A stretch of 46,323 nucleotides of DNA from Chthonomonadales bacterium (GCA_038217285.1 JBBQPO010000015.1:1-46323); one strand, 5' to 3'; shown: positions 675-17,519, counted from the stretch's first letter. Program-made: numbers and translations. The notes: generated from the letters alone by a model not told the origin.

Positions 675-3406
675 GATCGTGCTCGTCTACCATCATCCAT
701 ACCTCGTCTCTCTGCTCGACCCTGCGCCGCTGTTTGCGGCGAAGATTCCTGTTCAGCCTGGTTCTGCTCCTGCTGGCCCTTTCCACCCTGGCGCAGGCGC
801 AGAATCGGCCTGCGGAGCGGCTGCGCAATCCAGGATTCGAGGGGGGTGGGGGCAGCGATGGGCGCGGGGCGGGCGTTCCCGGCTGGGACGCTTTCGAGCT
901 CGGCTACGATGTGGACCGCATGACGCACCGCAGCGGCGAACAGAGCATTCGCTGCGACAGTCTGCGCACGACGACCCTGCGGGGAGCGCAGTCGAGAGTG
1001 GCGCTGCATCAGAAGAAGGCGGTTCCTGTCGAGGTCACAGGCTGGAGCAAGGCGGAAAAGGTGGGAGGTGTACAAGACAGCGACTACTCGCTCTATGTAG
1101 ATCTCGCCTATACCGACGGCACGACTCTGTGGGGCCGTGTCGAGGGGTTCCATGCGGGGACGCACGACTGGGAGCGCCGCCATCTGCTGATCATCCCGAC
1201 CAAGCCTATCGAGAGCCTGACGGTAAACGCGCTCTTCCGCAAGCATGCCGGTACCGCCTGGTTCGACGATTTCTCGGTGCATGAGCTCGACGGCCCCGGC
1301 ATCTACGACAGCCAGTCGCTGCTGCCCCTGCCCAGGCGCGAGGCCCATGGCACGGAAGGCGCGGGGCGCAGCGTCTCCTCGACCGACGGGCTGACGCTGC
1401 GCCTGAACGGGCGGAGCGACATCGTGAGCGTCAAAAGCGGCGGGCAGGAGATCGCCTCCACCGGGCAGGGCGGATTCTACCTACGCGATGTGGGGGCGGA
1501 GGGGCCGGTTCTAGCTCTGCGCGGCGCCCAGACCGCCTACAAAAACAACGGTGTGAGTTTCCGCACCGAACTCCCCGATTCACATTTGCGCTTTTTTGCC
1601 CAGATCGTGCCGGAAGGCGACGCGCTTGCTATCGATGGCGAGATCACCGACCTGACCGGGAAGGACCGCGCCGTGACGGTCTACTTCGCTCTGCCCGTCG
1701 GCGCGGAGGGCTGGCTCTGGGGGGACGACATCCGGCGCTCCCGTCCGATCGTCGCCGGACAGGAGTTCAGCAACCTCACGCATAGCAACGTTGGGGCCAC
1801 GGGTGGGCTGTCGCTCTATCCCTTCGGCTCAGTCTCTCAGGGCAAGGCCGGCGTCGCGCTCGCGGCCCGCATGGACTGGCCCTCCGTCACGCGCATCTTT
1901 TACAACGGCCCGACGCGCCAGTTGGTGATGGCCTGGGACGTGGCGCTGACGCCGAAAACGACCGCCTGGCCGGCCCGCAACGCCCGCTTTCGCGGCCTGC
2001 TCTATCGCCTGCCCCCGGCCGAGGCCGCGTGGGGTTTCCGCGCCGCCGCGCAGAAGTTCTATCGCCTGAACGCGCCAAACTTCGACCGCCTTGCGAAAGC
2101 CGACGGCATCTGGATGCCGTTCACCGACCCGGCCACCATCAAGAACGCCGCCGACTTCGGCATCGCCTATCACGAGGGAGACAACAGCCTCGAAACCGAC
2201 GATGTGGCCCATATCCTCAGCTTCCGCTACACCGAGCCGATGACCTGGTGGATGCCCATGCCGCCTGCCATGCCCCGGACCTACGAGGCCGCGATGGCGC
2301 TTCTCAACAGCCTTGCCGTCGATCCTCACCCGAAGTCTAAGACCGATCAGGATCTGGCGCGCGCCGTCCTGAGCAGCGGCACACAGGACGAGAGCGGACA
2401 CTACAATCTGGAGTTCCGTAACGAGCCCTGGGCGAACGGCGCGGTCTTCGTCATGAACATCAACCCGGAACTCGCCGCCACACCCGACAAACCGACCCGC
2501 GCCTCCCTGGCCTACACGGTCGAGATGGCGAGTAAGATGTACGGCGCGGAGGCGAAGCGCACGCGCGGCGACCAGGACGGCGAGTATCTCGACTCGCTGG
2601 AGGGCTGGAGCGATGTGCAGGACTACCGGGCTTCCAATATCGCCGCCTGCCCCTATCCGCTGCCTTTCGACACCGACAGCCGTCACCCGGTTCTGCCGCA
2701 GTGGTATTCGACCTTCGCCTTCGCCCGCTATCTGCGCGACGACCTGCACAACCGGGGCAAGCTGCTGATGGCGAACTCCGTGCCGATCCGGTTCGCGGTC
2801 TTCGCACCGCTGTTCGACGTCATGGGCATCGAAGTCAACTGGCTCGGCGCGAAGGGCGAATGGCAGCCGGAGGGAGACGACGTCCTGAGCCTGCGCCGTA
2901 CGCTCAGCGCGACCAAACCCTACCTGCTCCTGATGAACACCAACTTCGACAAGTTCTCGGCCCCACTGGTCGAAAAGTACTTCCAGCGCAGCCTGTTCTA
3001 CGGGATCTTTCCCTCGATGTTCAGCGCCGACGCCGCCACGAATCCCTACTGGGAGACTCCGGCCCTCTATGAGCGCGACCGCCCGCTGTTTCGCAAATAT
3101 ATCCCGGTCATTCGCAGGCTCTCCGCCGCCGGTTGGGAGCCGTTGACGCAGGCGAAGAGCAGCAACCCTATCGTCTATGTGGAGCGCTACGGCAAGCGAC
3201 TCTTCACCCTCCTCAACGATACCCATCAGCCGGAAGCCGCCACTCTGACCATCGATCTGGCTGTGCTGGGCCTGCGTACCGGCTCTGCGCTGGAAGTCGT
3301 CAACCTGCTCACCGGAGCAAAACTGCCCGTCTCTTTCGCCAATGGCAAACTCACTACGACCGTCTCGCTGCAACCTGACGAGGCCCTGGCTCTGGAACTG
3401 CATTAG
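671..3406 (+). CDS. secreted protein with N-terminal carbohydrate-binding (CBM4/9-like) domain and putative glycoside-hydrolase-like catalytic region
   Basis: 911-aa ORF with a signal peptide (LLLLALSTLAQA). 'LRNPGFE...GTHDWERR...GTAWFDDFSV' is a CBM-like jelly roll; a DGEYLDS motif lies in the C-terminal region. Confidence 0.7.
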   Translation: MRSCSSTIIHTSSLCSTLRRCLRRRFLFSLVLLLLALSTLAQAQNRPAERLRNPGFEGGGGSDGRGAGVPGWDAFELGYDVDRMTHRSGEQSIRCDSLRTTTLRGAQSRVALHQKKAVPVEVTGWSKAEKVGGVQDSDYSLYVDLAYTDGTTLWGRVEGFHAGTHDWERRHLLIIPTKPIESLTVNALFRKHAGTAWFDDFSVHELDGPGIYDSQSLLPLPRREAHGTEGAGRSVSSTDGLTLRLNGRSDIVSVKSGGQEIASTGQGGFYLRDVGAEGPVLALRGAQTAYKNNGVSFRTELPDSHLRFFAQIVPEGDALAIDGEITDLTGKDRAVTVYFALPVGAEGWLWGDDIRRSRPIVAGQEFSNLTHSNVGATGGLSLYPFGSVSQGKAGVALAARMDWPSVTRIFYNGPTRQLVMAWDVALTPKTTAWPARNARFRGLLYRLPPAEAAWGFRAAAQKFYRLNAPNFDRLAKADGIWMPFTDPATIKNAADFGIAYHEGDNSLETDDVAHILSFRYTEPMTWWMPMPPAMPRTYEAAMALLNSLAVDPHPKSKTDQDLARAVLSSGTQDESGHYNLEFRNEPWANGAVFVMNINPELAATPDKPTRASLAYTVEMASKMYGAEAKRTRGDQDGEYLDSLEGWSDVQDYRASNIAACPYPLPFDTDSRHPVLPQWYSTFAFARYLRDDLHNRGKLLMANSVPIRFAVFAPLFDVMGIEVNWLGAKGEWQPEGDDVLSLRRTLSATKPYLLLMNTNFDKFSAPLVEKYFQRSLFYGIFPSMFSADAATNPYWETPALYERDRPLFRKYIPVIRRLSAAGWEPLTQAKSSNPIVYVERYGKRLFTLLNDTHQPEAATLTIDLAVLGLRTGSALEVVNLLTGAKLPVSFANGKLTTTVSLQPDEALALELH

Positions 3407-3573: not shown

Positions 3574-3635
3574 TTTAACCTAATCTTAACCTTCGATTAA
3601 CACCCTCTTAGTTTTTCTTAACATGTTCTTAATCA
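3574..3635 (+). promoter_or_regulatory. six direct repeats YTTAAYYW at ~11-bp period (Pho-box / OmpR-PhoB family-like operator array)
   Basis: TTTAACCT(3574), CTTAACCT(3585), ATTAACAC(3596), CTTAGTTT(3607), CTTAACAT(3617), CTTAATCA(3628), followed by a -10-like CATACT at 3644-3649. Confidence 0.65.
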
Positions 3636-3717
3636 TCCGCGTGCATACTCTCTCCACGTAACGCACGCGTTCCCCGCCTCCATTCCGGGGAGCGCCTCAC
3701 AAAGGAAGGTAGAACTT

Positions 3718-4608
3718 ATGTCTCAGTCCACTCACTCGAAAAGCGGTAAGGGCGCCGGATTTACGCTTATCGAGCTACTTGTCGTTATCGCGATCATCGC
3801 GATTCTGGCGGCAATCCTGTTTCCCGTCTTCGCCCAAGCCCGCGAAAAGGCCCGCTCCATCTCCTGCCTGAGCAACGTCAAGCAGATCGGGACAGCCTTT
3901 TACATGTATGTGCAGGACTACGACGAAACCACACCCTGCCTGGGCAATGGCTGGGACTGGGAAGTCAAGCTCTATCCCTACACCAAGAATGTCCAACTCT
4001 ACTTCTGTCCCGACCGCAGTGACTGCTGCGATAACTACGATTACACAGCCCAGATCGGTCTTAACATCAGCCCGAGCGGCAAAGAGATCGGCTACGGCTA
4101 CAACTGGGGCTTCCACCGCCGTGGCGGCGGACTGCTTCTCGGCCAGCAGGCCGATCCTCAGCGACCTGGCAGTAAGTATATTCCCGGCATCACTCTCGCC
4201 GCGATGACCGCTCCGGCGAACCTCTTCGCCTTCGGCGACAGCTACGACACGCCCCGCACCACTATGAACATGAGCTTCCTGCTCTGCACCTGGAACGGCA
4301 CCAGTAACAGCTCCCTGCGCCACAGCGGCGGTCACTTCAATGTCGGCTTCGCCGATGGACACGCCAAGGCGGTCTACTACAAAGCGGGCTATATGAGCGG
4401 CGCAGAGAACGGTCGGTTCGCCCGACCGCGCAGCACCAACGAAGTCTCGTACTACTGCGCCGATCCGGACGCCATGCTCACCAACACCGACGGCGACAGC
4501 CTGGACCTGCCCTCTCCTTTCCGATGCGGCGACATCGGCAAGTGGATGGACACGAACTACCCGCCCTGCACCGGTGGTGCGACCTCCCACTGTATGATGC
4601 CGGACTAG
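3718..4608 (+). CDS. DUF1559 / prepilin-type N-terminal cleavage-methylation protein with H-X9-DG-like motif
   Basis: [34 protein letters not shown]-terminal [27 protein letters not shown]. Confidence 0.93.
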
Positions 4609-4655
4609 TTCGTCCCGCTTCCCGTTGTTCGGGACCACGAACAGCGTTCTTTGAA

Positions 4656-4690
4656 GGCCTCCGATGCGCGGTTGGCGCGCATCGGAGGCC
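4656..4690 (+). terminator. perfect 15-bp stem-loop between DUF1559 gene and small lipoprotein (attenuator or mRNA stabiliser)
   Basis: GGCCTCCGATGCGCG-gttgg-CGCGCATCGGAGGCC followed only by a weak T tract (gtttc). Confidence 0.5.
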
Positions 4691-4713
4691 GTTTCTCATA
4701 GGAGATTGAAACC

Positions 4714-4872
4714 ATGAAAACTTTCCGAACCTCCCTGATGGCCCTTCTCTGCGGCGCTTTTCTGACACTGATTCTCGCCGGCTGTGGCGGTACGCCTGAT
4801 GTCAAACAGGATCCCGGCGCGGGCAGCAAGGGCCTCAGCGCTCAGGAGAAGAAAGACAAACAGGACAAGTAG
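4714..4872 (+). CDS. small lipoprotein (52 aa), not in ORF track
   Basis: RBS AGGAG; MKTFRTSLMALLCGAFLTLILAGCGGTPDVKQDPGAGSKGLSAQEKKDKQDK*; lipobox LAG-C. Confidence 0.8.
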   Translation: MKTFRTSLMALLCGAFLTLILAGCGGTPDVKQDPGAGSKGLSAQEKKDKQDK

Positions 4873-4912
4873 CAGCCACACCATCCGGCGACACGAAGGA
4901 TAGGGATCTCCG

Positions 4913-5149
4913 ATGAAAAATAAGACTGTTTCGCCGCGGTTCGTCCTGACCACAGTAGCCGTGCTGGTAACCTCGCTGGGCGTCGTCGAATGGCGTGCCC
5001 TTTATGCCCTGGACCATCCGCCCCTCCATCGCACCAACTGCGTCACCTGCCACTCCGATGCCAAAACCATGAAGGCCATGGCGGACAAAGCGGGCGACGA
5101 TCTCTATAACCAGCATCGCGGCGATCTCAAAGAAGCCTGGACCAAGTAG
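4913..5149 (+). CDS. small exported or membrane-anchored protein with CxxCH heme-binding motif
   Basis: N-terminal hydrophobic segment, NCVTCH motif, AGGGA RBS-like sequence upstream. Confidence 0.65.
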   Translation: MKNKTVSPRFVLTTVAVLVTSLGVVEWRALYALDHPPLHRTNCVTCHSDAKTMKAMADKAGDDLYNQHRGDLKEAWTK

Positions 5150-5211
5150 CGGCGCCATATCCCGTTTTTGCACCACACGCTTCGCGGGTGGTGCAATTTC
5201 TCGTGTTCCAG

Positions 5212-5439
5212 TTAAGCGGTGATTGGCTGGGGGATGTGGAAGCGGGTGGTGAAGAGGCTCACGACCTGGAGCAGGGGCGCGTAGTCGCTCCCAGTCAGCA
5301 GGCTATCGGCGAGCGCGACCGTACAGACCGTGTCGTCGGTGAAGCGACTGCCCGGCACGAAGAGCGGAAACTGCATGCTCTTCAGCCCGCCGCGTTCGTA
5401 CACCGATCCAATGACATCCCCCGCAATCGCTCCCAGCAT
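5212..5439 (-). pseudogene. ADP-ribosylglycohydrolase (DraG/ARH family) N-terminal fragment
   Basis: MLGAIAGDVIGSVYE...FTDDTVCTVALADSLL matches the ARH N-terminus; the ORF stops after 75 aa. Confidence 0.8.
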
Positions 5440-5624
5440 CTCCCACTCCCTCTCTCGGCCTCCACCCGAAACGCGTGTTCGGTTCCCGCCGATCCCTTCA
5501 CCGTCCGCCGCAGGCGCCTGCCCCCCTGGTTCCCCCAATGCGAGGCTTATCCATATTGACGCGTCTGACGGCGACTCTGTCTCGCCCCGCCATAAGAAAA
5601 AAATAAAAATAGGCGAACCCTTCC

Positions 5625-5664
5625 GACTACAAACGTCGTCTAATAGTTGACGACAAACATAGTC
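5625..5664. promoter_or_regulatory. two BlaI/MecI-type operator-like imperfect palindromes
   Basis: GACTACA-aa-CGTCGTC (5625-5640) and GACGACA-aa-CATAGTC (5649-5664), resembling the TACA-N2-TGTA core, immediately upstream of the BlaI-family gene. Confidence 0.6.
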
Positions 5665-5679
5665 AGGAGCGTGACGCCC

Positions 5680-6069
5680 ATGCGGAGTTTCCCACCTATC
5701 AGTAAAGCGGAGCTGAAACTTCTCAGCTACATCAACGATCATCACCCGATCACCGTGCGGGAGGTTGCCGATCAATTCGCGCAGACCGATGCCTACGCCC
5801 GCACGACGGTGCTGACTCTCATGGAGCGACTGCGCGGCAAAGGGCATCTGGTGCGCGAGCAGATCGATGGCCTGCAGCGCTACGCGCCTGCGGTGCCGAA
5901 GGAGTTGATGCAGCAGTCGCTGGTACGTGATTTCGTCAGCCGCGCTCTAGGCGGATCGGTCTCCCCCTTCGTCGCGTTTCTGGCCCGCGAGGCTCGGGTC
6001 AGCGATGCGGAACTGGACGATCTGAAGCATCTGGTCGCGGAGCTGGAGAAACAGCGGAAGGAGGAGTAA
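5680..6069 (+). CDS. BlaI/MecI/CopY family transcriptional repressor
   Basis: ISKAELKLLSYI...ITVREVAD...YARTTVLTLMERLRGKGHLVRE winged-helix pattern; RBS AGGAG at 5665. Confidence 0.93.
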   Translation: MRSFPPISKAELKLLSYINDHHPITVREVADQFAQTDAYARTTVLTLMERLRGKGHLVREQIDGLQRYAPAVPKELMQQSLVRDFVSRALGGSVSPFVAFLAREARVSDAELDDLKHLVAELEKQRKEE

Positions 6070-6074
6070 GCGCG

Positions 6075-7943
6075 ATGTCTCTCTGGAATGAATCTCTGAA
6101 CGATTTTGCGGCTCTCTGGCTGGCAACGCTGGCGCGCGCCTGCTGGCAGGGGGGTCTGGCGCTCGGGCTGGTATGGGCTGCCTGCCGCCTGCTGCCGCGC
6201 CTCCCGGCCTGGGGACGCTGCTGGCTGTGGCGTCTGGCCTGCCTGAAACTCCTGGTCGCGCTCCTCTGGCTGCCGAGCCTCGATCTGCCCCTGCTTCCGC
6301 CGCCGACCACAGCGGCAACGCCGCTCTTCCTGACGCCGGCCATTCCGCAGCCGACCGTCGCCGGCTCGGAATCCGGGCTTGCCGGTGACCTTCCTTCGAA
6401 CGATCTGCGGGTCGTCACGACGACTGCCGTTGTCCCTACGGTGGCGGGGTGGCTGCTGCTGCTCTGGTCGGCCAATCTATTATGGCAGGGCGGGCAGGCG
6501 GTTCGGCAGGGTCTGACGGCTGGACGACTGCGCCGGACCGGCAAGCCTCTGGACGGCAGCCCGCTCGATTTTTGGAACGTCGCATTGAGCCGTGACCTGC
6601 GCCTCACCGGCGTTCCCTACCTGCTGTCGAGCACGGCGACCGCCACACCGCTGCTGATAGGCATATTTCGGCCGTGCATCGTCCTGCCGGAGGCCCTGCT
6701 CTCCACGTGTACTCCAGACGAGTTGCGCCTGATCCTCGCGCACGAACTGGCGCATATCCGACGGCGCGATCTGCTCTGGGGGTGGCTGCCTCTGTTGACG
6801 CGCCTGGTCTGCGGTTTCCATCCGCTCGTCTGGCTGGCCGAACGTGAGCTCGGCATGGCGCAGGAGATCGCCTGCGACGAGTCCGCCCTGCATCTTACCG
6901 GAGTCGCCTCGTCCGCTTATGGCCGTCTGCTGGTGCGTGTCGCGGCACGCTTCGACCCACGTCCCTCTCGGGGCTTCGGCATGATCGGCATGACCGAGTC
7001 CTACCTCACCCTGAAAAGGAGATTGTCTGCCATGAAGAGTTTTCCCTCTGCTCCGCGTCCGTATCGCACAGCCATTCGCTTCGGCATGCTCACCCTCGGT
7101 CTGGCCGCGCTCGTCCCCTGGCGTGTCGCCGCCCAGGCCACTGCGCCGGTCGGATTGCCCCCGACTGCACCCGCCAATCCGGCGGCCCCAGAAGCGCCCC
7201 CAGTGCCTGCTCTTCCCGCTCCCGCAACGCCTACGGTCGGATTGACCCCGGCTGCTCCTGCCGATCCGGCTGCACCCATCAATTCGGCAGCCATCGATCC
7301 TACTGCCGTCCGTCCTGCCGCAACCCCTGTTGGAGTGAGGCCCGCTCGTCAAGCGCCCCGCGCCCGCAGGAGCCCGGCTCCGTCCGGAATGGGTTATGCG
7401 CCTGCAATGCCTGGTCCTCGGGCATCTCGAGGCGGTAAGGCAGCGACCGGGTCCTCCGAGGGCATTTCAGCGCCCGTGCAGACCGATCCACCCGAAACTC
7501 TCAGCTACCCAATGGCCGCGCCTGGAATGCTCTCCCATGCAGCGCCCAGCGTCGATCCGACCGGGCGCGCGAATCGTGGTGCTGTTGGTCCCAGCGGTCG
7601 CTCTGGCGAGGCAGGTAGCTTTAGTCCCGGTGGCGGTTTCGGTAGTAGTGGTAGAGGTGGCGGCTACGGCTTTGGTCCCAGTGGGGGTGGTGGCTTTGGT
7701 GGCGGTGGTCGTGGTCCTGGTGGCGGCGGCATTGGTCCTGCTGGTGGCGGCGGTCGCGGCTTCGGCGGCGGCACCGGCGGCGGTGGCCTTGGCACTCCTG
7801 TCGGTGGTGGCGGTGGCGGCTTGGGTCCCGCTGGCGGTGGTGCCGGCTTTGGTGGCGGTGGCAGTTCTAGTAGCGAGGGGGCTACCCGCGCGACTCCTGG
7901 GGTTAGCGGAGTACCGAACCCGCCTCTCGCTAGGCCCAAGTGA
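6075..7943 (+). CDS. BlaR1/M56 family metallopeptidase with Pro/Ala- and Gly-rich low-complexity C-terminus
   Basis: TM segments, ILAHELAHIRRRD zinc motif, QEIACD; follows the BlaI-family gene. Confidence 0.9.
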   Translation: MSLWNESLNDFAALWLATLARACWQGGLALGLVWAACRLLPRLPAWGRCWLWRLACLKLLVALLWLPSLDLPLLPPPTTAATPLFLTPAIPQPTVAGSESGLAGDLPSNDLRVVTTTAVVPTVAGWLLLLWSANLLWQGGQAVRQGLTAGRLRRTGKPLDGSPLDFWNVALSRDLRLTGVPYLLSSTATATPLLIGIFRPCIVLPEALLSTCTPDELRLILAHELAHIRRRDLLWGWLPLLTRLVCGFHPLVWLAERELGMAQEIACDESALHLTGVASSAYGRLLVRVAARFDPRPSRGFGMIGMTESYLTLKRRLSAMKSFPSAPRPYRTAIRFGMLTLGLAALVPWRVAAQATAPVGLPPTAPANPAAPEAPPVPALPAPATPTVGLTPAAPADPAAPINSAAIDPTAVRPAATPVGVRPARQAPRARRSPAPSGMGYAPAMPGPRASRGGKAATGSSEGISAPVQTDPPETLSYPMAAPGMLSHAAPSVDPTGRANRGAVGPSGRSGEAGSFSPGGGFGSSGRGGGYGFGPSGGGGFGGGGRGPGGGGIGPAGGGGRGFGGGTGGGGLGTPVGGGGGGLGPAGGGAGFGGGGSSSSEGATRATPGVSGVPNPPLARPK

Positions 7944-8197
7944 GCGTCTCAAAATGCCGTCGTAGCCGCCGGTTGGCTCATGCCGACGGGCGGCTTCACT
8001 ATGGGCTAACGCGTCTAGTACAGGGACCTGCCTGCCTTTTGCGGGAGGCGGACGCCAGACCATTGCTGATGTCGGGGGCACGAGGGCAGGAAATAAAGGG
8101 AAAGCGGGCGAATAGACAGCCGGATGTGCAGCGCACGGCAATGGATTTCTGGGCAATGTTGGATCTGAAGCCCAACGGAACTAGAGGCTGATACTGG

Positions 8198-9367
8198 ATG
8201 TTAGACCATTTCACAGTTAAAGACTTCAAATCGCTGGTAGATGTAACTGTAGACCTCGGTGTGGTCAATGTATTCATCGGAGCAAATGGGAGCGGCAAGA
8301 GCAATCTTCTGGAGGCCATCGGCGTTCTCGGAGCGGCAGCCTCTGGTCGCGTCAATGATGAGTCGCTAAAGTACCGCGGCGTACGCCCGGGCGTCCCTGC
8401 ACTATACAAAGCCTCTTTTAAGAATAAGCAGGGCGCGTTGCATATCGGCTTTAAAGCCGAAGGCTACGGTGCGTCTTACGCCGTTTCTCTACTTAATCCG
8501 ATTGAGAAACCTACCCCCGAGTGGGCGTTCAAACACGAAAATCTAATGCTCGGTAAAAAACAGATCGTTGGACGTGGCCCTCGAACCTACGAACAACTCA
8601 ATCCGAATGCAGGGCTGGCAGCGCTTAAAGCAGTGGAGTTAAAGGCGGACGATCCCGCCGGAAAACTCCTCGATATGTTTCGCAACTATGCTATTTATTC
8701 TCCGGATACGCCGACACTCCGAGGGCTGGAGCCGGATCCACAGTCGCGAGAGCCGGTCGGCCTCGCAGGAGGCAGACTGCCTGAAGGACTATTGGCGATC
8801 CGATATACCGATGCGCAACAATACCTGACGGAAATGCTTTCTCTCGCGGGATGGATCTCTAGTTTCGGGGTCAGTTATACCAGGCAGATTCCGATTTCAG
8901 AAAGCGTCCCTCAACCACAGCGTGGACTACGGTTTCGTGATCAATATATGAGTGAGGGACGTAACCTGCTCTCCGGCTACGATGCCAGCGAAGGCATTCT
9001 CTATCTGCTGTTCTATAGCGTACTGGCCCTGCATCCAAAAGCGCCTCGTCTTTTTGCGATTGACAACTTTGACCAAGCTCTGAACCCGCGTACTGCCCGA
9101 GAATTTACGCGAACATTTTGCCAATGGTTGACGAACCAGAAAGACCGGCAGGTTTTGTTGACAACGCATAATCCTCTGGTACTTGATGGTTTACCGTTGC
9201 AGGATGATCGCGTAAGACTGTTTGCCGTAGATCGAAGTAAGCGCGGGCATACTGTTGTCAATCGAGTCATGGTGGATGAAAAGCTTCTTGAAGCAGCGGA
9301 GAAAGGTGTCCCCCTCTCGCAACAATGGGTCATGGGTCATTTTGGAGGAGTGCCTTCCAGTGTCTAA
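8198..9367 (+). CDS. ABC-type (AAA_21/OLD-like) ATPase
   Basis: Walker A GANGSGKS near the N-terminus, ASEG signature, Walker-B-like FAIDNFD, H-loop TTHN. Confidence 0.9.
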   Translation: MLDHFTVKDFKSLVDVTVDLGVVNVFIGANGSGKSNLLEAIGVLGAAASGRVNDESLKYRGVRPGVPALYKASFKNKQGALHIGFKAEGYGASYAVSLLNPIEKPTPEWAFKHENLMLGKKQIVGRGPRTYEQLNPNAGLAALKAVELKADDPAGKLLDMFRNYAIYSPDTPTLRGLEPDPQSREPVGLAGGRLPEGLLAIRYTDAQQYLTEMLSLAGWISSFGVSYTRQIPISESVPQPQRGLRFRDQYMSEGRNLLSGYDASEGILYLLFYSVLALHPKAPRLFAIDNFDQALNPRTAREFTRTFCQWLTNQKDRQVLLTTHNPLVLDGLPLQDDRVRLFAVDRSKRGHTVVNRVMVDEKLLEAAEKGVPLSQQWVMGHFGGVPSSV

Positions 9368-10045
9368 AATTCTACGGGTCAGTTATGTGGTCGAAGGAAC
9401 GACCGACTTCATCGTTCTGGACGCTCTGATCGAAAAGTTTCTAGTGGTATCGATTACGTTTCGAGACAGATCCAACCGCCTACTTCAGAGTATACCGACA
9501 ATCAGGGTATTCTGGGCGGCGGTTGGAAAGGAGTACTGAGGTGGTGTGAACAGACAGGAACATCCCCCGGCGGTTTCGCGAAAAGTCTGCCCCTATTGAA
9601 CTGCGATTGCCTGATTATCCATGTCGATGCCGATATTGCGGCTGAAGTAGAATTACAGTCGTATGATCTGGCTGCTCCCTGCCCCCCGGCAAAAGATACG
9701 TGCGATAAACTACACGCGCACCTGAAAAACCTCATTGGAAACCCTCTGCCATCAAAAGTCGTGCTCTGTATTCCTGCACAATGCATGGAAGCGTGGGTTT
9801 TCGCGGCATTGCATCCGGATCTGATTACAAATTTCCAACAGCTAGAGTGCAGATCGGAACCGGAAACCCTTCTTATCGGGAAACCGGACAAACTAGTACG
9901 TGACAAAGATGGCCGCGCCCGGAAGGAGCCGCAACGCTATAAAAAGGCGGAAAATCGTATAGCCAAAGGTTGGTCCCACACCATCGCCATTTGTTCTGAA
10001 GCACACCGGTTTGAGACAGATTGTCTTGCCGTCCTTCTTCAGTAG
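9360..10045 (+). pseudogene. TOPRIM-like partner of the ATPase (DUF4276/DUF4435-like), frameshifted at ~9444
   Basis: GTG start overlaps the ATPase end; YVVEGTTD motif. Restoring one base near 9444 gives continuous ...GIDYVSRQIQP...GGGWKGVLRWC...IIHVDADIA...EAWV to TAG 10045. Confidence 0.75.
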
Positions 10046-10102
10046 CCCCATCGAAAACTGCCTCCTCGTCAACAATGAGGCAAGCAAAACCCCAACACTG
10101 CT

Positions 10103-12760
10103 TCACTCTCCGCTCTGCTGGATCAGTTTGGCTACCAGTGCGGTCCAGCCTGTTTGGTGGCTTGCACCGAGGCCCGCGCCGTTGTCACCGTGAAAATACT
10201 CGTGGAAGAGAATATTATCGCGCCAGTGCGGGTCTGTTTGAAACGTCTCCAGGCCACCGTAGACCGGGCGTCGGCCGTTTTCGTCGCGTAGGAAGAGGCG
10301 GGTCAGGCGTCGAGAGAGCTCCTGAGAGACCTGCCAGAGGGTCAGCATCGTGCCGGAGCCGGTAGGGCACTCGACCAGAAAGTCGTCGCCGTAGTAGTGG
10401 TGAAAGCGCTGGAGCGCCTCGATCAGCAGGTAGTTGATAGGGAACCAGATCGGTCCGCGCCAGTTCGAGTTGCCGCCAAAGAGGCCTGTGCGGGATTCGG
10501 CGGGCTCGTAGTCCACGCAGTAGGTCGTGCCCTCGATAGTGATCGTGTAGGGCTGGGCCAGGTGTACTTTGCTGAGGGAGCGAATGCCGTAATCGCTGAG
10601 GAACTCCTCCGGATCGAGCAGGCGGCGCAGCAGCCGCTTCATGCGATGCCCGCGCACGAGCGCGAACAGACGACGCTCTCCGGCTCCCGGCTCCGTCCAG
10701 CGGGAGATGAGGCCGGAGAGCTCGGGACGGTGCTTCAGGAACCACTCCAGGCGGTCGCGGAAGCCGGGGAACATCTGGAGCGTGTCCGGCTCCATCGAAT
10801 CCACAGCGAGCAGAGGCATGAGGCCGACCAGAGAGCGGACTTTGAGGCGCTGCGCGCTGCCGTCGGGACTGCGGAGCACATCGTAGAAGAACTCGTCCTC
10901 TTCGTCCCACAGCGAGATTCCTTCGCCTGCGATGTTGTTCATGGCGCCCGCGATATTGAGGAAGTGCTCCAGAAAGGTCGTCGCCATGTCTTCGTAGATC
11001 GGATTGTCGCGCGCCAGTTCGAGAGAGATGCTGAGCATAAGGAGGCTATAGAAGCCCATCCAGGCGGTGCCATCGGACTGATCCAGCGTACCGCCGTTGG
11101 GCAGCACGGCGCTGCGGTCGAACACCCCGATATTGTCCATGCCGAGGAAGCCACCCTGAAAGACGTTGAGGCCGTTGGGATCTTTGCGGTTGACCCACCA
11201 GGTGAAGTTGAGCAGCAGCTTCTGGAAGACTCGTTCCAGGAAAGCGCGATCCGCCACACCGGTCGTGCGGCGTTCGATCTTGTAGATGCGGAAGGCGGCC
11301 CAGGCATGGACCGGAGGATTGACATCGCCGAACGCCCATTCGTAGGCAGGCAGTTGACCGTTGGGATGCATGTCCCAGTCTCGGCAAAGCAGCAGCAGTT
11401 GCCGCTTGGCGAAGCCGGGGTCGATCAGAGCCAGCGGAATCGTGTGAAACGCCAGATCCCAGGCGGCATCCCAGGGATCCTCCCAGGCGTCGGGCATGGA
11501 GTAGATATCGGCGTTGTTGAGGTGCCGCCACTCGTGATTGCGGCCTTTTTTGCGCTCAGGCGGAGGCGGAGGCATACCGGGATCGCCGTCGAGCCAGTCG
11601 GCGACCGAGTAGTTGTAGAACTGTTTGCTCCAGAGCAGCCCGGCGAAGGCTTGCCGCTGCACGTTGCGCACGTCGTCGGAGAGAGCGGAGTCCAGTTGCT
11701 TCGCATAGAAGGCGTCCGCCTCCTGTTTGCGCTGCTGCAGGATGGTGTCGAACGAGTGGCCGAGCGCATCGGTCATGGTCGTGTCCGTGTTCAGCCGCAG
11801 CCGCAGCGTCTTCGTCTCTCCCGCCGTGAAGTTCAGGTGATAGCGCAGGGCGGCTTTCGTCCCGGTATTATCGGTATTGACGGCATCGGTACGCCCTCCA
11901 ACAATGTAGTTATGGAAGGCATCTTTGACGTAGTGGCTGGCGTTCTGGCCATGCGGAGGGAAGAGGCAGGAGAAGTTGGTTTCGTTCTCCGTGAAGAGGG
12001 GTTCGGGCACATCCACGGTCGCGCCGCCGTGCAGGTAACGTGTGCCGAGTTCGACATGGTCGGCGCGCAGTGTGCGCATCCCGTCTTGCACGGGGGCTAG
12101 CCCGCTGATCTGCGGCCGGGGCACGTCGCCGCCCCAGCTCCAGGTGTTGCGGAACCAGAGAGTTGGCAGCACGTCCAGCATCGCATCCGGCCCATGATTG
12201 ACGATGGTGATCTCGATCAGGATGTCTTCCGGATCGAGTTTGGCGTACTCGATGAAGACGTCGAAATAGCGATTCTCGGCGAAGACTCCGGTATCCAGCA
12301 ACTCGAATTCGGCCTCTTCGCGGCCCCGGCGCGCGTTCTCCTCGATCAGTTGGATGTAGGGATAGGCGGCATGGGGGTATTTGTAGAGAGCCTTCATGTA
12401 GGAGTGGCTGGGGGTGGAGTCGAGAAAGAAGAAGTACTCCTTGACATCCTCGCCGTGGTTGCCCTGCGGGCCGGTCAGCCCGAAAGGGCGCTCTTTGAGG
12501 ATTGGGTCGTTGCCGTTCCAGAGCGCGAGCGCGAAACAGAGGTTCTGCCGCCGGTCGCAGATGCCGAGCAGGCCGTCCTCATTCCAGCGGTAGGCGCGGG
12601 AGCGGGCGTGGTCGTGCGGGAAGTAGTCCCAGGCCGAGCCGTCGGGGCTGTAGTCCTCTCGCACGGTGCCCCAGGCCCGCTCGCTCAGATAAGGCCCCCA
12701 TTTTTTCCAGTCGACGGCATGGTCCCGCGCCTCTAAAACCCGCTTCTCTTCTTCGGTCAT
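10103..12760 (-). CDS. MGH1-like / GH63-like glucosidase
   Basis: [54 protein letters not shown] conserved blocks; start taken at MTEEEKR. Confidence 0.92.
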
Positions 12761-12773
12761 GGTTCCTCTTGAT

Positions 12774-13541
12774 TCAGTAGAGCGTGACTTGCTGCGTGAG
12801 GCCGCCGTCCACATAGTAGGTGCTGCCGGTGACGTAGTCCGACTCGCTGCTGGCGAGGAAGACGGCGACCGAGGCGACCTCTTCGGGTCTGCCGAAGCGT
12901 CCCCAGGGGATCTCGCTGATGGCGTTCTTGCTGGCGATGGGGTCGTCGAGCACCGACTGGTTGATCGGGGTAGCGATAGCGCCCGGCGCGATGTTGTTGA
13001 CGTTGATCTTGTAGGGAGCCAACTCCATAGCGAGGTTGCGCATCATCATGCGGATGCCGCCCTTGGAGGCGCAGTAGGCGGTATACTCGGGGAACGGAAT
13101 GTCTTCGTGGACCGAGGAGATATTGATCAGCTTGCCGCCCTGGCCCTGCTTGACCAACTGCCGCGCGGCGGTCTGATGCACCAGGAACGCGCCGAAAAGG
13201 TTGACCCCGATGACCCGGTTCCATTCGTCATCGGTCACTGCGAGGAACGGCTTTTTGATCTCGATACCCGCATTGTTGACGGCGATATCGATGCGTCCGA
13301 ACTTCGCCACGACCTCTGCCATCATGCGCTCGACATCTTCGCGCTTGCTCACATCTCCTGCGACCGCGATGCCCGTCGTCCCGAACGTGGCGACCTCGGT
13401 GGTGGCGTCCGCATCGCGCGTTCCGCCCGGCAGGTAGTTGACGGCGACATGCGCGCCCTCGGCGGCGAACCGCTCGGCAATCGCCTTCCCGATCCCGCTA
13501 TTGGCCCCTGTAATGAACGCGACCTTATCCTTCAATCTCAT
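12774..13541 (-). CDS. SDR family oxidoreductase (glucose 1-dehydrogenase-like)
   Basis: [25 protein letters not shown] motifs. Confidence 0.92.
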
Positions 13542-13842
13542 AGCGTCTCTCCTCCTAGGTGGTGAAGGGGCGATAGCCCGCAATAGTAACTCCCATCGTC
13601 GCGTTAAAGTTCCCTGCTTCCCCGGCTTTCTCCTGCCCTGCCTGCGCCGTAGACGGCAGGAAACAGGGGCTGACATCCCGAAATGAGAGCCATCTCACCC
13701 GTTTGGGAGCAGAGATCAGGAAGCCGGTACGTCTGGAAGGTTCCGCAGTCAGTATGCCGCAGGCGGCGCGACCGAGCCTTCCGGCAGTGGCCCGCGCCGA
13801 GGGGATCGTACGTCCAATCACAACTCAAAAGGAAACAGTCTG

Positions 13843-14514
13843 ATGTCGAGTCGAAATTTAATTGCGGTGGCTATGTTGGCGCTGGCTTTGCTCGTGGGGG
13901 GAGGCGCGGTGGTGGTGCATGCCCGGCCCGGCAGTTTGCCGGGGGACGGCGTCGGGGGCGACAACACCGCCGTCGTGGATATGGAGCGTCTCTATAATAA
14001 CTCCGACCTGCCGCAGGTACTGGCGCAGAAGGTCGCGCAACTGGGCGCGCAGGCCCAGCAGCGCCTCGACGCCCTGGCGGACGCCCGCTTCCTGGACGCG
14101 AAGGAACTGCAAGAGTACGGTGATCTGATCGGCAAGGCAGCGCCGGACGCGGCCCAGCAAGCCCGTATGAAAGATCTCAAAGCCCTCTCGAACCAGCGCT
14201 CCGCCGAGCTCGACACCCTCAACGTCAAACCGGCCGACATGGTCACCCCGGCGGACAAGACGCGGATGCGCACCCTGGTCGAAATGAGCCACCTTATCGA
14301 TAAAGTGCTGCCCTCCGTACACGACGATCTGGCGCAGGATCAGGCGGATCGCATTCGCGCCATCCGCCGCGACCAGATCGCCCAGTTGCGCGTTGTTGTC
14401 GGCCAGGTCGCGAAGGAGAAAGGCGTCGTCCACGTCTTCGATGTCAACGCCCTCGTCTACTCCGCCAACGACCTGACCCCTCTCGTCCTGAAAAAACTAA
14501 AGCCCGGCAAGTAG
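13843..14514 (+). CDS. OmpH/Skp-like periplasmic chaperone
   Basis: Signal peptide, AVVDMERLY, long helical region, VAKEKGVVHVFD...DLTPLVLKKL C-terminus. Confidence 0.75.
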   Translation: MSSRNLIAVAMLALALLVGGGAVVVHARPGSLPGDGVGGDNTAVVDMERLYNNSDLPQVLAQKVAQLGAQAQQRLDALADARFLDAKELQEYGDLIGKAAPDAAQQARMKDLKALSNQRSAELDTLNVKPADMVTPADKTRMRTLVEMSHLIDKVLPSVHDDLAQDQADRIRAIRRDQIAQLRVVVGQVAKEKGVVHVFDVNALVYSANDLTPLVLKKLKPGK

Positions 14515-14539
14515 TACAGAGAACCCTGGACGCGCTCTA

Positions 14540-14797
14540 ATGATAAGAATGGAAGACAAATTTTCCGAAGACTACTACTTAAACCCCTCGATCCCGTGGC
14601 AGGAACGCTGGGACGCCTATAACCTTAAAAACACACAACATCTCTTGCTAGACGGTGTGAAACGCCCCTGCGATTTCTGTGACTCGCTCTATCTGGTCGA
14701 AGCAAAGTTTGCAGGCAATGCTTGTTTCCATTGCTATGCGTGCAGCGAATTGCCGGAACCTCCTGAATGGAGTGCAGACGCTTCTGTGTCCGATTAA
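14540..14797 (+). CDS. small Cys-rich hypothetical protein
   Basis: 85-aa ORF with CDFC and CFHCYAC; next to the integrase remnant. Confidence 0.4.
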   Translation: MIRMEDKFSEDYYLNPSIPWQERWDAYNLKNTQHLLLDGVKRPCDFCDSLYLVEAKFAGNACFHCYACSELPEPPEWSADASVSD

Positions 14798-15175
14798 TTG
14801 CGTAAGCCTCGGTGATAGTCTCCATCGAAGGTTCCAGCGCCCTCGGCGACGGTCCTGCGGAAGAGGCTTCCGAGGTGCCGATGGTAGGTCGCAACCGTGG
14901 ACGACTTGCCGGGCTCCGATGCGGTAGCGTGGCCCCAGCGCTCTTCCGGCTCCTTGTGGCTGTTGGTGAGGTAGGCGAAAAACTGCCGCATCTCGAGGAC
15001 ACTGCAACAGGGGATGGACTTATGTTCGAGGAACCAGAAGAAGTTGCGAAGATAGAGGGGCCGGTTGGCAAGCGTGGATGCAGAATGCTGCTCGAACCCG
15101 CATGACTACAGCCAGCCCTCGGCGTAGCGCTTCAGATCCGAAACGCTGATAGTCGGGTCCGTTTTGACGGAAGGA
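14794..15175 (-). pseudogene. tyrosine integrase N-terminal (SAM-like) remnant
   Basis: Minus frame reads SDLKRYAEGWL*SCGFEQHSASTLANRPLYLRNFFWFLEHK...EMRQFFAYLTNSHKEPEERWG...TVATYHRHL, with an internal TAG and no catalytic domain; directly 3' of the tRNA. Confidence 0.6.
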
Positions 15176-15210
15176 AGAGGTGGGTTTGAGATCGAAACCA
15201 AAGAGAAACA

Positions 15211-15282
15211 TAGGCAGTATTGGATTTGAACCAATGACCTCTTCCGTGTCAAGGAAGCGCTCTACCCCTGAGCCAACCGCCT
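15211..15282 (-). tRNA. trnV: tRNA-Val(GAC)
   Basis: AGGCGGT acceptor / ACTGCCT-A; D arm GCTC..GAGC; anticodon arm CTTCC-TTGACAC-GGAAG; T arm ATTGG-TTCAAAT-CCAAT; CCA not encoded. Confidence 0.96.
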
Positions 15283-15319
15283 GTAAGCACCGTCGCTTTT
15301 TACGTCGAACAGTGAGAGA

Positions 15320-15348
15320 ATTATATCACAGGCAGGGCTGTCTGTCAA
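15320..15348 (-). promoter_or_regulatory. sigma70 promoter of tRNA-Val
   Basis: Minus strand TTGACA-N17-TATAAT with TG extension. Confidence 0.85.
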
Positions 15349-15424
15349 GGTGAACCCGATTATAAACGATTGCTTCCCGGTCAAGGAAGTAATCGTTTTC
15401 CCTCTCAAACCGACGGTCTCCCTC

Positions 15425-16315
15425 TCAAAGGGCGTGTTCCGTTGCCTTCGGATTTTGCGACCGGAGCTTGCGATAGTTCGTCAGGCATTTCTCCACAGTC
15501 TCCAGAGAGGGGAAACGACTGCCTTCCTGCTCGATCAGCACATACTCTGCGCCACCCTTCTCCTCGGCGGCCTTCAGGAGATTTGCCCAGGGAGTATCCC
15601 CTTCCCCGAACAGCACTTTGTAGCCGCGATCCGTGCCGGCGCCCCAGTCCTTGAGGTGCAGGGAGCGAATACGGCCGGGATGGGCGCGGATCCAGGCAAT
15701 GGGATCGAAGCCGACTTCCATACAGGTGCCGACATCGAACTGCAGGGTGACCTCTTTGGGCGTGTGCGCGGCCAAAAAAGGCATCGGCCGAAATCCGTCC
15801 CGCTCGGTAAACTCCAGATGGTGATTATGATAACCCGCGCGCATCTTCAGGGGCTTGAGCGTCTGTGCGGCCTGGGTCAGGGTATCGGCGACCCGCTTCC
15901 AGTCGTCCTGATTCTCCGTTCGCCCGGCGCTTGCCATCACGATCGTCTTGGAACCGAGGATCCGGTTCAGTTCGATCGCGTGTTTCAGCCCGTCCCCTTC
16001 CAGCCCACTGCGATTGTTGTGGGTCGAGAGGCACCGGATATTCAGCTCGTCCAGCAGTTTGCGCACCTCCTGCGCATAGGAGGCGGACCAGGCCGCATAC
16101 GGGGAATAGAACTCGACCACCTCATAGCCCATCCGCGCGACCGTCCGCACCGTTCCCATCAGATCTTTCGCCAACTCGTCACGCACCGAATAGAGCTCCA
16201 GTCCTACCGGTAGGTGGCGGGGCTTCCCCAGCGCTCCGGCTGCAAGAGCGCCGCTCGACGCCGCCAGCGTCGCCATAAGAAACGCGCGTCTTGTCATCTC
16301 ATCGTTGTTAGCCAT
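15425..16315 (-). CDS. Tat-exported sugar phosphate isomerase/epimerase (AP endonuclease 2 TIM barrel)
   Basis: TRRAFL Tat motif; GLELYSVRD, GYHNH, FDVG, LHLKD, IEQE motifs. Confidence 0.9.
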   Translation of the reverse strand: MANNDEMTRRAFLMATLAASSGALAAGALGKPRHLPVGLELYSVRDELAKDLMGTVRTVARMGYEVVEFYSPYAAWSASYAQEVRKLLDELNIRCLSTHNNRSGLEGDGLKHAIELNRILGSKTIVMASAGRTENQDDWKRVADTLTQAAQTLKPLKMRAGYHNHHLEFTERDGFRPMPFLAAHTPKEVTLQFDVGTCMEVGFDPIAWIRAHPGRIRSLHLKDWGAGTDRGYKVLFGEGDTPWANLLKAAEEKGGAEYVLIEQEGSRFPSLETVEKCLTNYRKLRSQNPKATEHAL

Positions 16316-16452
16316 ACGTTGCTCCTCTGCCCCCGGAAAAAGGCTTCCTTGACGTAGGGGTACGTTCCCATTACGGGGTGAAAGATCCTTCTCGATTTGC
16401 GCGAAGGCGGGTCATCGAACGCTCAACAGAAGGGGGCAGGGACTCAGGTCTG

Positions 16453-17250
16453 TCAGTCGCAGATGCCGTAGAAGGTGCCGTAGCTGTTGCCGTCGGTGGC
16501 GGCGTTGGGGTCTGGATCGTCGCTGCGGCCGCCGGAAGGGCAGACGACCTGGGTGTCGAACGCGCCACTGGTGACCACGAATTTGGCGTGACCGTCGGCG
16601 TACACGAAGCCCGCGCCCCGGCTGTGCCAGGCCTGGTAGTAGCCGGGAATGTAGCCGTATTTGGCGTTCGTGCCGAACCAGGGCATCATCTCGTCGCGCA
16701 TGATGCGGGTGTCGGAGGGCGCGGTGAACTGCGAATCGGTGACGATGTTGTTCACGGTGAACTGGGTCGTGTCGTTGTTCTGTGACGATTCGCCTGCCAC
16801 CACGGAGAAGCTGCCCCGGTCGAAGCGGTAACTGGAGCCGTAGCAGGACTGGTAGTTGGCGCGGCCCGGACAGCCGTAGGTCGGGTCGGAGATCGACGGG
16901 CCGCCCTGATCGTCGGGGCAGCGAAAGATCTCCTTGTTCTTGGTATAGGGCAGGATCTCCAGCTCGATCCCTTTGTGCGGCGTGTCGCCGGTCCAGGCGC
17001 GGGCGCTGGTCACGGGGTCCTGGGTGTTGTAGGCGTAGAAGATCGGGAAGCTCTCGTCGTAGTCCTGCACATACATCTTGACCGCCAGACCGATCTGGCG
17101 AACGTTGGAGGTGCAGACGGTCTGGCGCGCGCTTTCGCGGGCCTGCGCGAAGACCGGGAAGAGAATGGCCGCCAGGATCGCGATGATCGCGATGACGACG
17201 AGCAGCTCGATGAGGGTGAAGGCGGTGCGGATGCGGGAAGTATTGTTCAT
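16453..17250 (-). CDS. DUF1559 / prepilin-type N-terminal cleavage-methylation protein with H-X9-DG motif, downstream of TPP riboswitch
   Basis: [52 protein letters not shown] at 17250 with GGAG RBS. Confidence 0.93.
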
Positions 17251-17284
17251 TTGGGTTGCTCCGTTCTCACCGAAGGCGGGCAAC

Positions 17285-17317
17285 AAAAAACGCCGCCATC
17301 GGGAAATGGAAGCGGCG
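17285..17317 (-). terminator. intrinsic terminator in riboswitch expression platform
   Basis: Minus strand CGCCGC-ttccatttcccgatg-GCGGCG-TTTTTT between the aptamer and the start codon. Confidence 0.7.
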
Positions 17318-17365
17318 AGAAGAGGGCACAGCGCCACTAGGGCGCAGATGTCTTTCCGGTATTGG

Positions 17366-17458
17366 CCGCTTTCCTACGCCGGTATGATCCGGTTCAGGTA
17401 CCAGGGTCGGCTTTTCAAAAGCCCTCTCAGCCTGTTTTGCAGCAGGCTCCCCTAGCGG
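17366..17458 (-). ncRNA. TPP (thiamine pyrophosphate) riboswitch
   Basis: Minus strand CCGCTAGGGGAGCCTG..CAGGCTGAGAGGGC..GCCGACCCTGGTACCTGAACCGGATCATACCGGCGTAGGAAAGCGG, with CTGAGA, ACCTGA and ATACC.GCGTAGGAA hallmarks and P1 CCGCT/AGCGG. Confidence 0.93.
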
Positions 17459-17490
17459 TGGCGCGACCGTTTTGCGGTCGCGTCGTCTTT

Positions 17491-17519
17491 AGTGTACACG
17501 TATTCCTTCGAAATTGCAA
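17491..17519 (-). promoter_or_regulatory. sigma70-like promoter upstream of TPP riboswitch
   Basis: Minus strand TTGCAA-N17-TACACT. Confidence 0.6.

Follow-up and report, generated by a model that had tools for sequence, protein, structure and literature searches.

TonB-dependent receptors with riboswitch leaders, such as btuB, place the outermost component of an uptake route under the riboswitch of the vitamin concerned, beside an inner-membrane system, and thiamine salvage operons under thiamine pyrophosphate (TPP) riboswitches bring together thiN and a ThiV-type SSF symporter. Type IV filaments also act in uptake; competence pili and pseudopili catch DNA outside the cell and bring it through a secretin, with minor pilins giving the binding specificity, and we know of no repertoire of small-molecule-specific subunits in competence pili. 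In the present study, we analyzed a 46,323-nucleotide stretch of DNA from a Chthonomonadales bacterium (GCA_038217285.1, JBBQPO010000015.1:1-46323; hereafter the window, contig C15), which encodes two pilin-like DUF1559 proteins, the products of genes A and B, the former behind a Pho-box-type repeat array and the latter behind a TPP riboswitch. The source genome comprises 6.2 Mb in 459 contigs (60% G+C, 95% complete).

A precedent for capture proteins with a pilin-type signal is the archaeal bindosome, in which Sulfolobus sugar-binding proteins with class III signal peptides are served by the Bas assembly system (PMC3047682). The features in common are nutrient-capture proteins with a type IV pilin-like signal peptide (the capture role being putative here), a prepilin-type peptidase together with filament-like assembly, and several substrate-specific members on one machine. 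The archaeal proteins are binding proteins of ABC transporters combined with a pilin-type signal, whereas the whole protein is pilin-like in the present case and the host is bacterial. Control would also differ, being exerted here by riboswitches and Pho boxes; no search for Bas genes was made. Regarding an ABC-transporter link, a BtuF-like gene is co-regulated with a vitamin B12-linked paralog of genes A and B solely through a separate riboswitch.

The pilin-like genes occupy the same regulatory slot as btuB-type receptors, and a BtuF-like gene lies here behind the second cobalamin riboswitch of the genome; however, there is no relation in sequence or fold, and the energy source and the outer-membrane route would differ. 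If the capture reading holds, the likeness to competence pili would lie in a filament that catches an external substrate, passage through a secretin and subunit-borne specificity, although the substrate of those pili is DNA; CoiA-like and pilus genes are present in this genome without a link to genes A or B. Thiamine salvage operons resemble the gene B locus in the TPP aptamer with its terminator and, in relatives, in the presence of thiN and once of an SSF symporter in the same unit, but the first and most conserved gene here encodes a pilin-like protein that is absent from thiamine regulons in the literature searched. That literature contained no description of a link between a TPP or cobalamin riboswitch and DUF1559, and DUF1559 was rarely mentioned and never functionally by title or abstract.

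The central observation of the present study is that three nutrient signals are placed on three head clades of one protein family in one genome, including a Pho-regulated clade. The members of this family in the window and the elements that accompany them are as follows, with positions counted from the first letter of the window.

3575-3634, plus strand: Pho-box array of six CTTAAC(C/A)-type direct repeats, with units at 3575, 3586, 3597, 3608, 3618 and 3629
3644-3649, plus strand: candidate -10 hexamer CATACT, identified by eye, 8-10 bp behind the last Pho box
3718-4608, plus strand: gene A, pilin-like DUF1559 protein of 296 aa bearing a signal peptide of class III, the constant shaft, its own head and an H-X10-DG motif
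4656-4697, plus strand: terminator-like hairpin behind gene A, identified by eye (15-bp G+C-rich stem, 5-nt loop and T-rich tail)
16453-17250, minus strand: gene B, pilin-like DUF1559 protein of 265 aa with a TPP riboswitch upstream, conserved Cys and H209-X9-DG
17285-17317, minus strand: G+C-rich terminator hairpin with a six-U run (expression platform), sequence read by eye
17354-17463, minus strand: TPP riboswitch aptamer (RF00059, 71 bits against a gathering score of 54.3; full length, model positions 1-105)
17491-17519, minus strand: candidate gene B leader promoter TTGCAA-17 nt-TACACT, identified by eye, with 8 of 12 consensus positions

Both proteins passed the cut-offs of the prepilin N-terminal models, with PF07963 (N_methyl) scoring 30.7 bits in A and 28.1 bits in B (curated cut-off 21.2) and TIGR02532 scoring 29.7 and 27.6 bits (cut-off 16.3). 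PF07596 (DUF1559/SBP_bac_10) scored 29.1 bits in A and 41 bits in B (gathering score 23.3) and covered profile positions 2-32 and 2-53 of 268, respectively, such that the heads lie outside the model. The processing-site context is GAG/FTLIE in A and RTA/FTLIE in B (the slash marking the site), with Glu at mature position 5, and cleavage of the gene B leader peptide is expected before F11 from the sequence. In a BLASTP comparison, residues 14-99 of A paired with residues 10-113 of B at 56% identity and the remainder was unalignable. The two genes were thus confirmed as DUF1559 paralogs with a common N-terminal pilin helix and different heads, as the original prediction had it; the H-X9-DG-like motif that it assigned to both is exact in B (H209-X9-D219-G220) and, by eye, one residue longer in A.

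The H-X9-DG prepilin-type processing-associated domain presumably corresponds to NCBIfam accession TIGR04294; five family members, A and B included, gave no NCBIfam match to the H-X9-DG domain model at E<=0.001. The GspG, GspH, PilA and ComGC models scored far below their cut-offs for A and B; the GspG model TIGR01710 reached 33-40 bits against an equivalog cut-off of 88.85, with the N-terminal 55 residues alone matching. The closest full-length named relative of the gene B product is from an uncultured Chthonomonadales bacterium (64% identity), the other matches being from Armatimonadota and PVC-type phyla, which places the organism in Armatimonadota; a DNA search with gene B as the query caught the shaft alone, returning paralogs of many phyla and one true ortholog (L032). 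Among 61 related genomes of the same order, which represent three families, the gene A orthogroup was present in 47 (E<=1e-40).

Regarding the leader of gene B, the aptamer ends 104 nt before the ATG at 17250, and a purine-rich stretch lies between the terminator and this ATG. In the minimum-free-energy fold, the 3' strand of the aptamer P1 pairs with the 5' arm of the terminator in an antiterminator arrangement; TPP binding would dissolve the antiterminator, and the modeled leader is, therefore, consistent with an OFF-switch. The terminator scan missed this hairpin, the loop and bulge of which fall outside the scan rules, and the consensus promoter scan, which needs 9 of 12 positions, did not report the candidate at 17491-17519. 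The GTG at 17337, given as the start of gene B in the open reading frame (ORF) list, was rejected because that ORF would run through the leader terminator, and the ATG at 17250 was taken instead.

Of the sampled words, 4-7% were present in four RNA-type runs from soil or rhizosphere. Coverage was confined to the constant-shaft segment 17136-17223, and the aptamer was covered by one low-depth contig from a run the RNA label of which is a guess. These runs say nothing on the expression of gene B. The shaft-coding DNA at 17136-17223 was matched by thousands of contigs with 90-99% likeness in the four runs, indicating that the shaft is extremely common there.

The link between the TPP riboswitch and the gene B orthogroup is conserved across the order. 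A total of 66 TPP riboswitches were found in 57 of the 61 genomes, and a member of the gene B orthogroup lies downstream of 55 of them, in 54 of the 61 genomes. This count comprises 25 of 30 loci at which the pilin-like ORF is directly downstream, the locus in the window, and 29 of 31 further stretches in which the ORF scored 320-470 bits against the orthogroup profile, as compared with 172 bits for the best paralog in the genome of the window. The remaining 11 riboswitches precede thiC (seven, four TPP riboswitches being assigned to thiC by coordinates), a thiE-like gene (two) and a thiM-like gene (one), the last two types being recognized by eye, while one had no sequence. In a wider sample of the phylum (301 genomes, 159 genera), the orthogroup was present in 110 genomes and 57 genera (E<=1e-70), and five complete genomes, one from each of five other families, contain six TPP riboswitches, all of which have an orthogroup gene directly downstream. 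Duplication of the TPP-controlled gene was seen in other Armatimonadota families, as a tandem behind a single riboswitch at G084:C3:37166-38769 and as two loci, each with its own riboswitch, on G200:C1.

A thiC match was obtained in 10 of the 61 genomes (7 of the 44 of high quality). The TPP-pilin pair is present in 48 of the 51 genomes without such a match, and its riboswitch is the sole TPP riboswitch found in most of them. The ORF that follows the pilin-like gene in relatives (n=15) encodes the thiamine pyrophosphokinase ThiN in 11 cases (PF04263, mostly with PF04265); the other four comprise an SSF symporter, a member of the TIM-barrel family that is also present in the window, a DinB-like protein and an ORF without a match, the reading frame of which was probably wrongly chosen. 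In the genome of the window, a thiN-SSF pair is located elsewhere, on contig C26. Since most genomes that gave no thiC match show the pilin-like gene as the one gene under TPP control, and since it shares an operon with thiN, the gene B orthogroup very probably serves the acquisition of external thiamine, to judge by the established logic of riboswitch regulons.

The only other TPP riboswitch of the genome precedes thiC on contig C241, a 9.4-kb contig that carries the TPP riboswitch with thiC, a thiD/thiE fusion, and a cobalamin riboswitch with a BtuF-like gene. The other four genomes of the genus (completeness 73-98%) gave no match to thiC, and this contig may be strain-specific or mis-binned.

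Regarding gene A, the units of the array are spaced 11, 11, 11, 10 and 11 bp apart. The SphR Pho box of Synechocystis consists of three or more 8-bp repeats in tandem, with CTTAACCT as the consensus and linkers of 3 bp, located upstream of the -10 hexamer, and such boxes lie before pst and phosphatase genes (PMC1906773). The unit and spacing of the gene A array match this description, the second unit being identical to the cyanobacterial consensus; the present array differs in that it occurs in Armatimonadota and before a pilin-like gene, with a regulator that is presumed from the sequence. The position of the CATACT hexamer suggests that the array stands in for a -35 element, and gene A looks monocistronic given the terminator-like hairpin behind it.

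Genome-wide, TTAAC-N6-TTAAC occurs 13 times as compared with 0-2 times at each of eight other spacings, and chains of at least three repeat units occur at six loci versus one in a shuffled genome. The 13 period-11 pairs form 10 loci, three of which precede pilin-like paralogs:

gene A, in the window
C105:1033-1893, the Pho-box intergenic region of which is common to a divergent Metallophos phosphoesterase
C75:8201-9139

A further locus precedes the porin-pstS-pstCA operon, which encodes an OprO/P-type porin, PstS and a PstC/A-type permease, and another precedes a PF04185 phosphoesterase that includes a beta-propeller; the remaining five precede a MgtE_N/CBS protein, an ABC-membrane/DUF1854 pair, an SDR and GH4 pair, a PMT_2 protein and an ORF of unknown type. 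In relatives, arrays precede the porin gene at 16 of 19 loci, with 3-5 units followed by CATAAT/TACACT-like hexamers and with 38 period-11 TTAA pairs versus 0-1 at other periods; upstream sequence was missing at one of the three loci that lack an array. The orthologs of gene A carry arrays at 16 of 25 loci (25 period-11 pairs versus 0-2), one of the nine others having just 36 nt upstream. These counts were obtained with the TTAA period test, which was used instead of a strict rule of at least two exact TTAAC per chain, under which arrays were present at 7 of the 25 orthologs. Since the same repeats lie before porin-pstS-pstCA in this genome and at 16 of the 19 loci of relatives, we conclude from the sequence that the array represents a Pho box, gene A being a member of the predicted Pho regulon. 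The nutrient-type regulators that the original prediction had placed before the two genes, a TPP riboswitch and a Pho-like array, were accordingly both recovered.

Genes A and B belong to a large repertoire. A profile of the TPP-linked clade detected 56 paralogs above 70 bits in the genome, 55 of which have the pilin motif; at E<=0.001, this profile matched 327,662 representative clusters. The median identity among 53 full-length paralogs is 94% over mature residues 1-32 and 21% over the heads. These proteins are best explained as disulfide-stabilized, differing heads on a nearly invariant type IV pilin shaft. Approximately 480 nt upstream of all 55 paralogs were scanned against 4227 Rfam families (E<=0.1), and the matches were the TPP riboswitch of gene B and one cobalamin riboswitch, with nothing else found, as follows.

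Contig C89, locus 3998-5142: cobalamin riboswitch (40.5 bits, gathering score 31.5) and pilin-like paralog of 253 aa (gene 3998-4759)

The only other cobalamin riboswitch of the genome precedes a gene for a BtuF-like periplasmic binding protein on C241. In relatives, 32 of 72 cobalamin riboswitch matches were examined, two of which had no downstream sequence, and a pilin-like gene lies within 700 nt downstream in 25 of the 32. The riboswitches of five classes in the genome number two for TPP, two for cobalamin, one for SAM and none for FMN or Moco genome-wide, and two of these five elements precede pilin-like genes; the SAM riboswitch (C10:31529-31642) has no pilin-like gene nearby. A shared operator beyond these signals was not detected among 10-mers common to the 55 upstream regions. 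Recognized nutrient signals are thus present at 5 of the 55 paralogs (one TPP, one B12 and three Pho). The census of nutrient regulators before DUF1559 genes that the original prediction had called for showed enrichment, with two of five riboswitches and three of ten Pho-box loci before members of a family that makes up approximately 1% of genes (the gene total being an estimate).

In a tree of the heads (154 rows), the TPP-linked set (53 rows) forms one clade with an SH-aLRT support of 98, and so does the B12-linked set (26 rows), with a support of 97. Both sets had been grouped by riboswitch and not by sequence. The gene A clade (support 99) was defined by similarity, such that its unity is trivial.

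The neighbors of the paralogs were surveyed in 180 ORFs with two E-value cut-offs. LacI/GntR regulators are near paralogs at six loci, and a pair consisting of a TPR protein and an FG-GAP_3/UnbV_ASPIC protein adjoins five paralogs (on C170, C249, C132, C34 and C218); this pair, with LacI or GntR nearby, looks like a second, sugar-type module around the family. Neighbors seen at single loci include Metallophos, CobU, a GH78 rhamnosidase and pantothenate kinase. The CobU (cobinamide kinase) gene (C42, approximately 3578-5050) is divergent from the paralog at C42:5178-6200, and a Metallophos phosphoesterase (C113, approximately 10157-11356) lies directly upstream of the paralog at C113:11499-12428; neither paralog has a riboswitch or Pho box upstream.

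The machine genes, which the original prediction had noted to be missing from the window, were found on other contigs, as was the assembly machinery that it considered necessary: 13 T2SSE ATPase matches, three secretins, PilC and one prepilin peptidase (Peptidase_A24 with A24_N_bact). A cluster at C3:19237-28217 contains three T2SSE ATPases, PilC (T2SSF) and the sole prepilin peptidase PilD, followed directly by two pilin-like genes, and likely represents the core machine. The first 22 mature residues of this pilin-like pair are identical to those of genes A and B, and the pair branches apart from the other paralogs in the tree. The genome contains no Plug domain and one match to the TonB-receptor barrel, and none of the riboswitch loci examined led to a Plug/TonB-receptor gene. 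No ABC transporter adjoins gene A or B in the window.

An AlphaFold2 model of the gene B product built from a 93-row alignment (pLDDT 94.2, pTM 0.87) shows a 50-residue N-terminal helix and a mixed head; it replaced a model from 24 close orthologs alone, which was unusable (pLDDT 43.9). Residues invariant across the clade of gene B include Y72, Y74, H92, E96, D114, R182, D186, Y198-G-Y200, W208 and R211. In a VIA-align comparison of this model with 48,161 chains, the top ranks were all pilins or pseudopilins, with Z scores of 5.0-3.0, an uncertain range; they include Thermus PilA4 (Z 5.0, 123 residues, rmsd 3.8), the ETEC type IVb pilin (Z 4.7), EpsG (Z 4.3) and PulG (Z 3.6). A Foldseek search of the PDB returned nothing at E<=0.001, with the helix matched alone.

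On balance, we lean towards the reading that these proteins are nutrient-specific capture proteins on a common pilin shaft, each switched by the sensor of its nutrient and handled by type IV filament machinery. Gene B would be transcribed only at low TPP, through the terminator/antiterminator of its riboswitch, and its product may be the extracytoplasmic thiamine-capture component of a salvage route in which the pilin-like head captures the vitamin, an SSF-type symporter imports it and ThiN pyrophosphorylates it. Under phosphate limitation, a PhoB/SphR-type regulator acting on the six Pho boxes would turn on gene A, which probably serves the acquisition of a phosphorus compound, while the third paralog, on C89, would respond to its cobalamin riboswitch. 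Cleavage of the pre-proteins most likely falls to the one PilD-type peptidase, after which PilC, the ATPases and secretins may handle the cut proteins such that interchangeable heads are displayed on one pseudopilus or pilus. The data show the regulators and their conservation, the architecture of constant shaft and variable head, one clade per switch, the operon link to thiN and the presence of the machine, whereas we infer that the proteins are processed and assembled and bind ligands, as well as any part that they play in passage across the outer membrane; the argument for co-assembly over a mere anchor is the extreme conservation of a shaft that is common to the machine-linked pilins. A more far-reaching version, which we regard as possible and on the whole doubtful, is that the type IV filament is a TonB-independent nutrient-fishing device in Armatimonadota, with one constant shaft and dozens of exchangeable subunits, each head binding one scarce compound (thiamine, corrinoids, a phosphorus compound, and probably sugars) and delivering it to inner-membrane transporters by retraction through a secretin or by periplasmic hand-over.

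Several observations weigh against the capture reading. No recognized riboswitch (in the Rfam scan) or Pho box precedes 50 of the 55 paralogs, and the neighbors of the paralogs are diverse and many of them unrelated (regulators, TPR and FG-GAP proteins, and glycosidases). In the window, thiN does not adjoin gene B, and contig C241, if it belongs here, shows that the genome has the capacity to synthesize the pyrimidine moiety. Thiamine is small enough for porins, such that an outer-membrane role is not required for this vitamin, and Plug-domain proteins in 36 of the 61 relatives (1-4 each) show that the lineage is not devoid of TonB-dependent transport. The head resembles pilins weakly, the best Z of 5.0 lying in a range for which the tool warns of common arrangements; no periplasmic-binding-protein fold was present among the VIA-align matches at Z>=2, and a PDB sequence search matched the N-terminal helix alone, leaving the head without a solved relative. 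The proposal of interchangeable uptake tips in the original prediction accordingly stands in part: distinct heads are under nutrient-specific regulation with one clade per vitamin switch, whereas most of the repertoire carries no recognized signal. The count of TonB-dependent receptors that it had asked for gave no Plug protein here and 0-4 per related genome; these receptors are scarce in the order and not absent.

Four other explanations are compatible with the observed regulation. To our knowledge, SSF symporters do not use binding proteins, a point against a rather unlikely alternative in which the products are tethered proteins similar to those of the bindosome, cut by the prepilin peptidase, unpolymerized, fixed to the inner membrane through the shaft, and feeding an SSF symporter or BtuCD-type transporters. 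The archaeal sugar-binding proteins with class III signal peptides provide a precedent (PMC3047682), the Pfam name of DUF1559 is SBP_bac_10, the genes are mostly solitary and outside pilus operons, and the operon partners seen in relatives include thiN and an SSF symporter; however, a mere anchor would not need a median identity of 94% over 32 residues in 53 paralogs, common to the PilC/PilD-linked pilins, and the modeled gene B product appears pilin-like and unlike a periplasmic binding protein. We give less credence to the possibility that the paralogs are secretion adaptors, i.e., condition-specific pseudopilins that let a type II machine export scavenging exoproteins, such as phosphatases or vitamin binders, and do not bind the nutrient themselves. 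Two paralogs stand beside Metallophos phosphoesterases, one pair with a common Pho-box intergenic region, and Pseudomonas aeruginosa possesses a type II system induced by phosphate starvation, but the TPP unit of the order consists of the pilin-like gene alone or with the cytoplasmic thiN, without co-regulated secreted cargo, and the scores of the GspG/GspH models are far from their cut-offs.

Starvation-induced adhesion or surface remodeling, in which alternative pilins alter attachment, motility or contact with vitamin-producing neighbors or prey and bind no nutrient, appears improbable to us. Adhesive minor pilins typically have variable heads on a common shaft, and many paralogs are near TPR and FG-GAP/ASPIC surface-type proteins; nevertheless, this explanation does not account for one conserved head clade per vitamin across families, for the operon with thiN, or for the observation that a pilin is the one gene seen under TPP control in most genomes that gave no thiC match. 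It is very improbable that the regulators are real while the proteins have a general envelope role, nutrient control being a lineage-specific accident without ligand specificity. The 50 paralogs lacking a recognized nutrient signal are what such a role would lead one to expect, yet 54 of the 61 genomes of the order, and five further families, have conserved the linkage, and each of two vitamin switches goes with a clade of its own.

The remaining features of the window lie around genes A and B. Two of them follow gene B:

15425-16315, minus strand: Xylose-isomerase-like TIM-barrel protein (PF01261), the N-terminus of which is of the twin-arginine type; the gene lies 137 nt downstream of gene B
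15211-15282, minus strand: tRNA gene, matched by Rfam at 67.4 bits, just downstream of the TIM-barrel gene

The TIM-barrel gene may be co-transcribed with gene B, but its membership in the system is doubtful because a gene of this family follows the gene B ortholog in one relative (L013) as compared with thiN in 11 of 15. Just upstream of gene A is a large glycoside-hydrolase-like gene (671-3406, 911 aa) with a weak Melibiase_C match alone, and a second gene of this type (10103-12814, 903 aa, MGH1-like/GH63) lies between genes A and B, as do a BlaI-type repressor (Penicillinase_R) and, behind it, a BlaR1/M56-type sensor peptidase (5647-7943) and an AAA_21/AAA_15 ATPase of 389 aa (AbiEii-like, RecF/SMC-type; 8198-9367), which is a possible defense or toxin-antitoxin component.

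The DUF1559/H-X9-DG proteins rank with the largest bacterial families that lack an assigned function, and riboswitches and Pho boxes are a direct read-out of the nutrient that a gene serves. The occurrence of three such signals on three head clades, therefore, yields testable ligand assignments, namely, thiamine, B12 and phosphorus. A gene pair wired to shortages of vitamin B1 and phosphate points to an undescribed pilus-type scavenging of scarce nutrients; if the heads bind these compounds, they would represent a new class of bacterial nutrient-capture proteins and could explain vitamin uptake in diderm bacteria with few or no TonB-dependent receptors. If the filament also fishes for nutrients as outlined above, this would provide a function for the DUF1559/H-X9-DG superfamily, which comprises more than 300,000 sequence clusters. 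Considering that 51 of the 61 genomes lack a thiC match, the gene B orthogroup probably has a central part in the dependence of soil Armatimonadota on vitamin B1.

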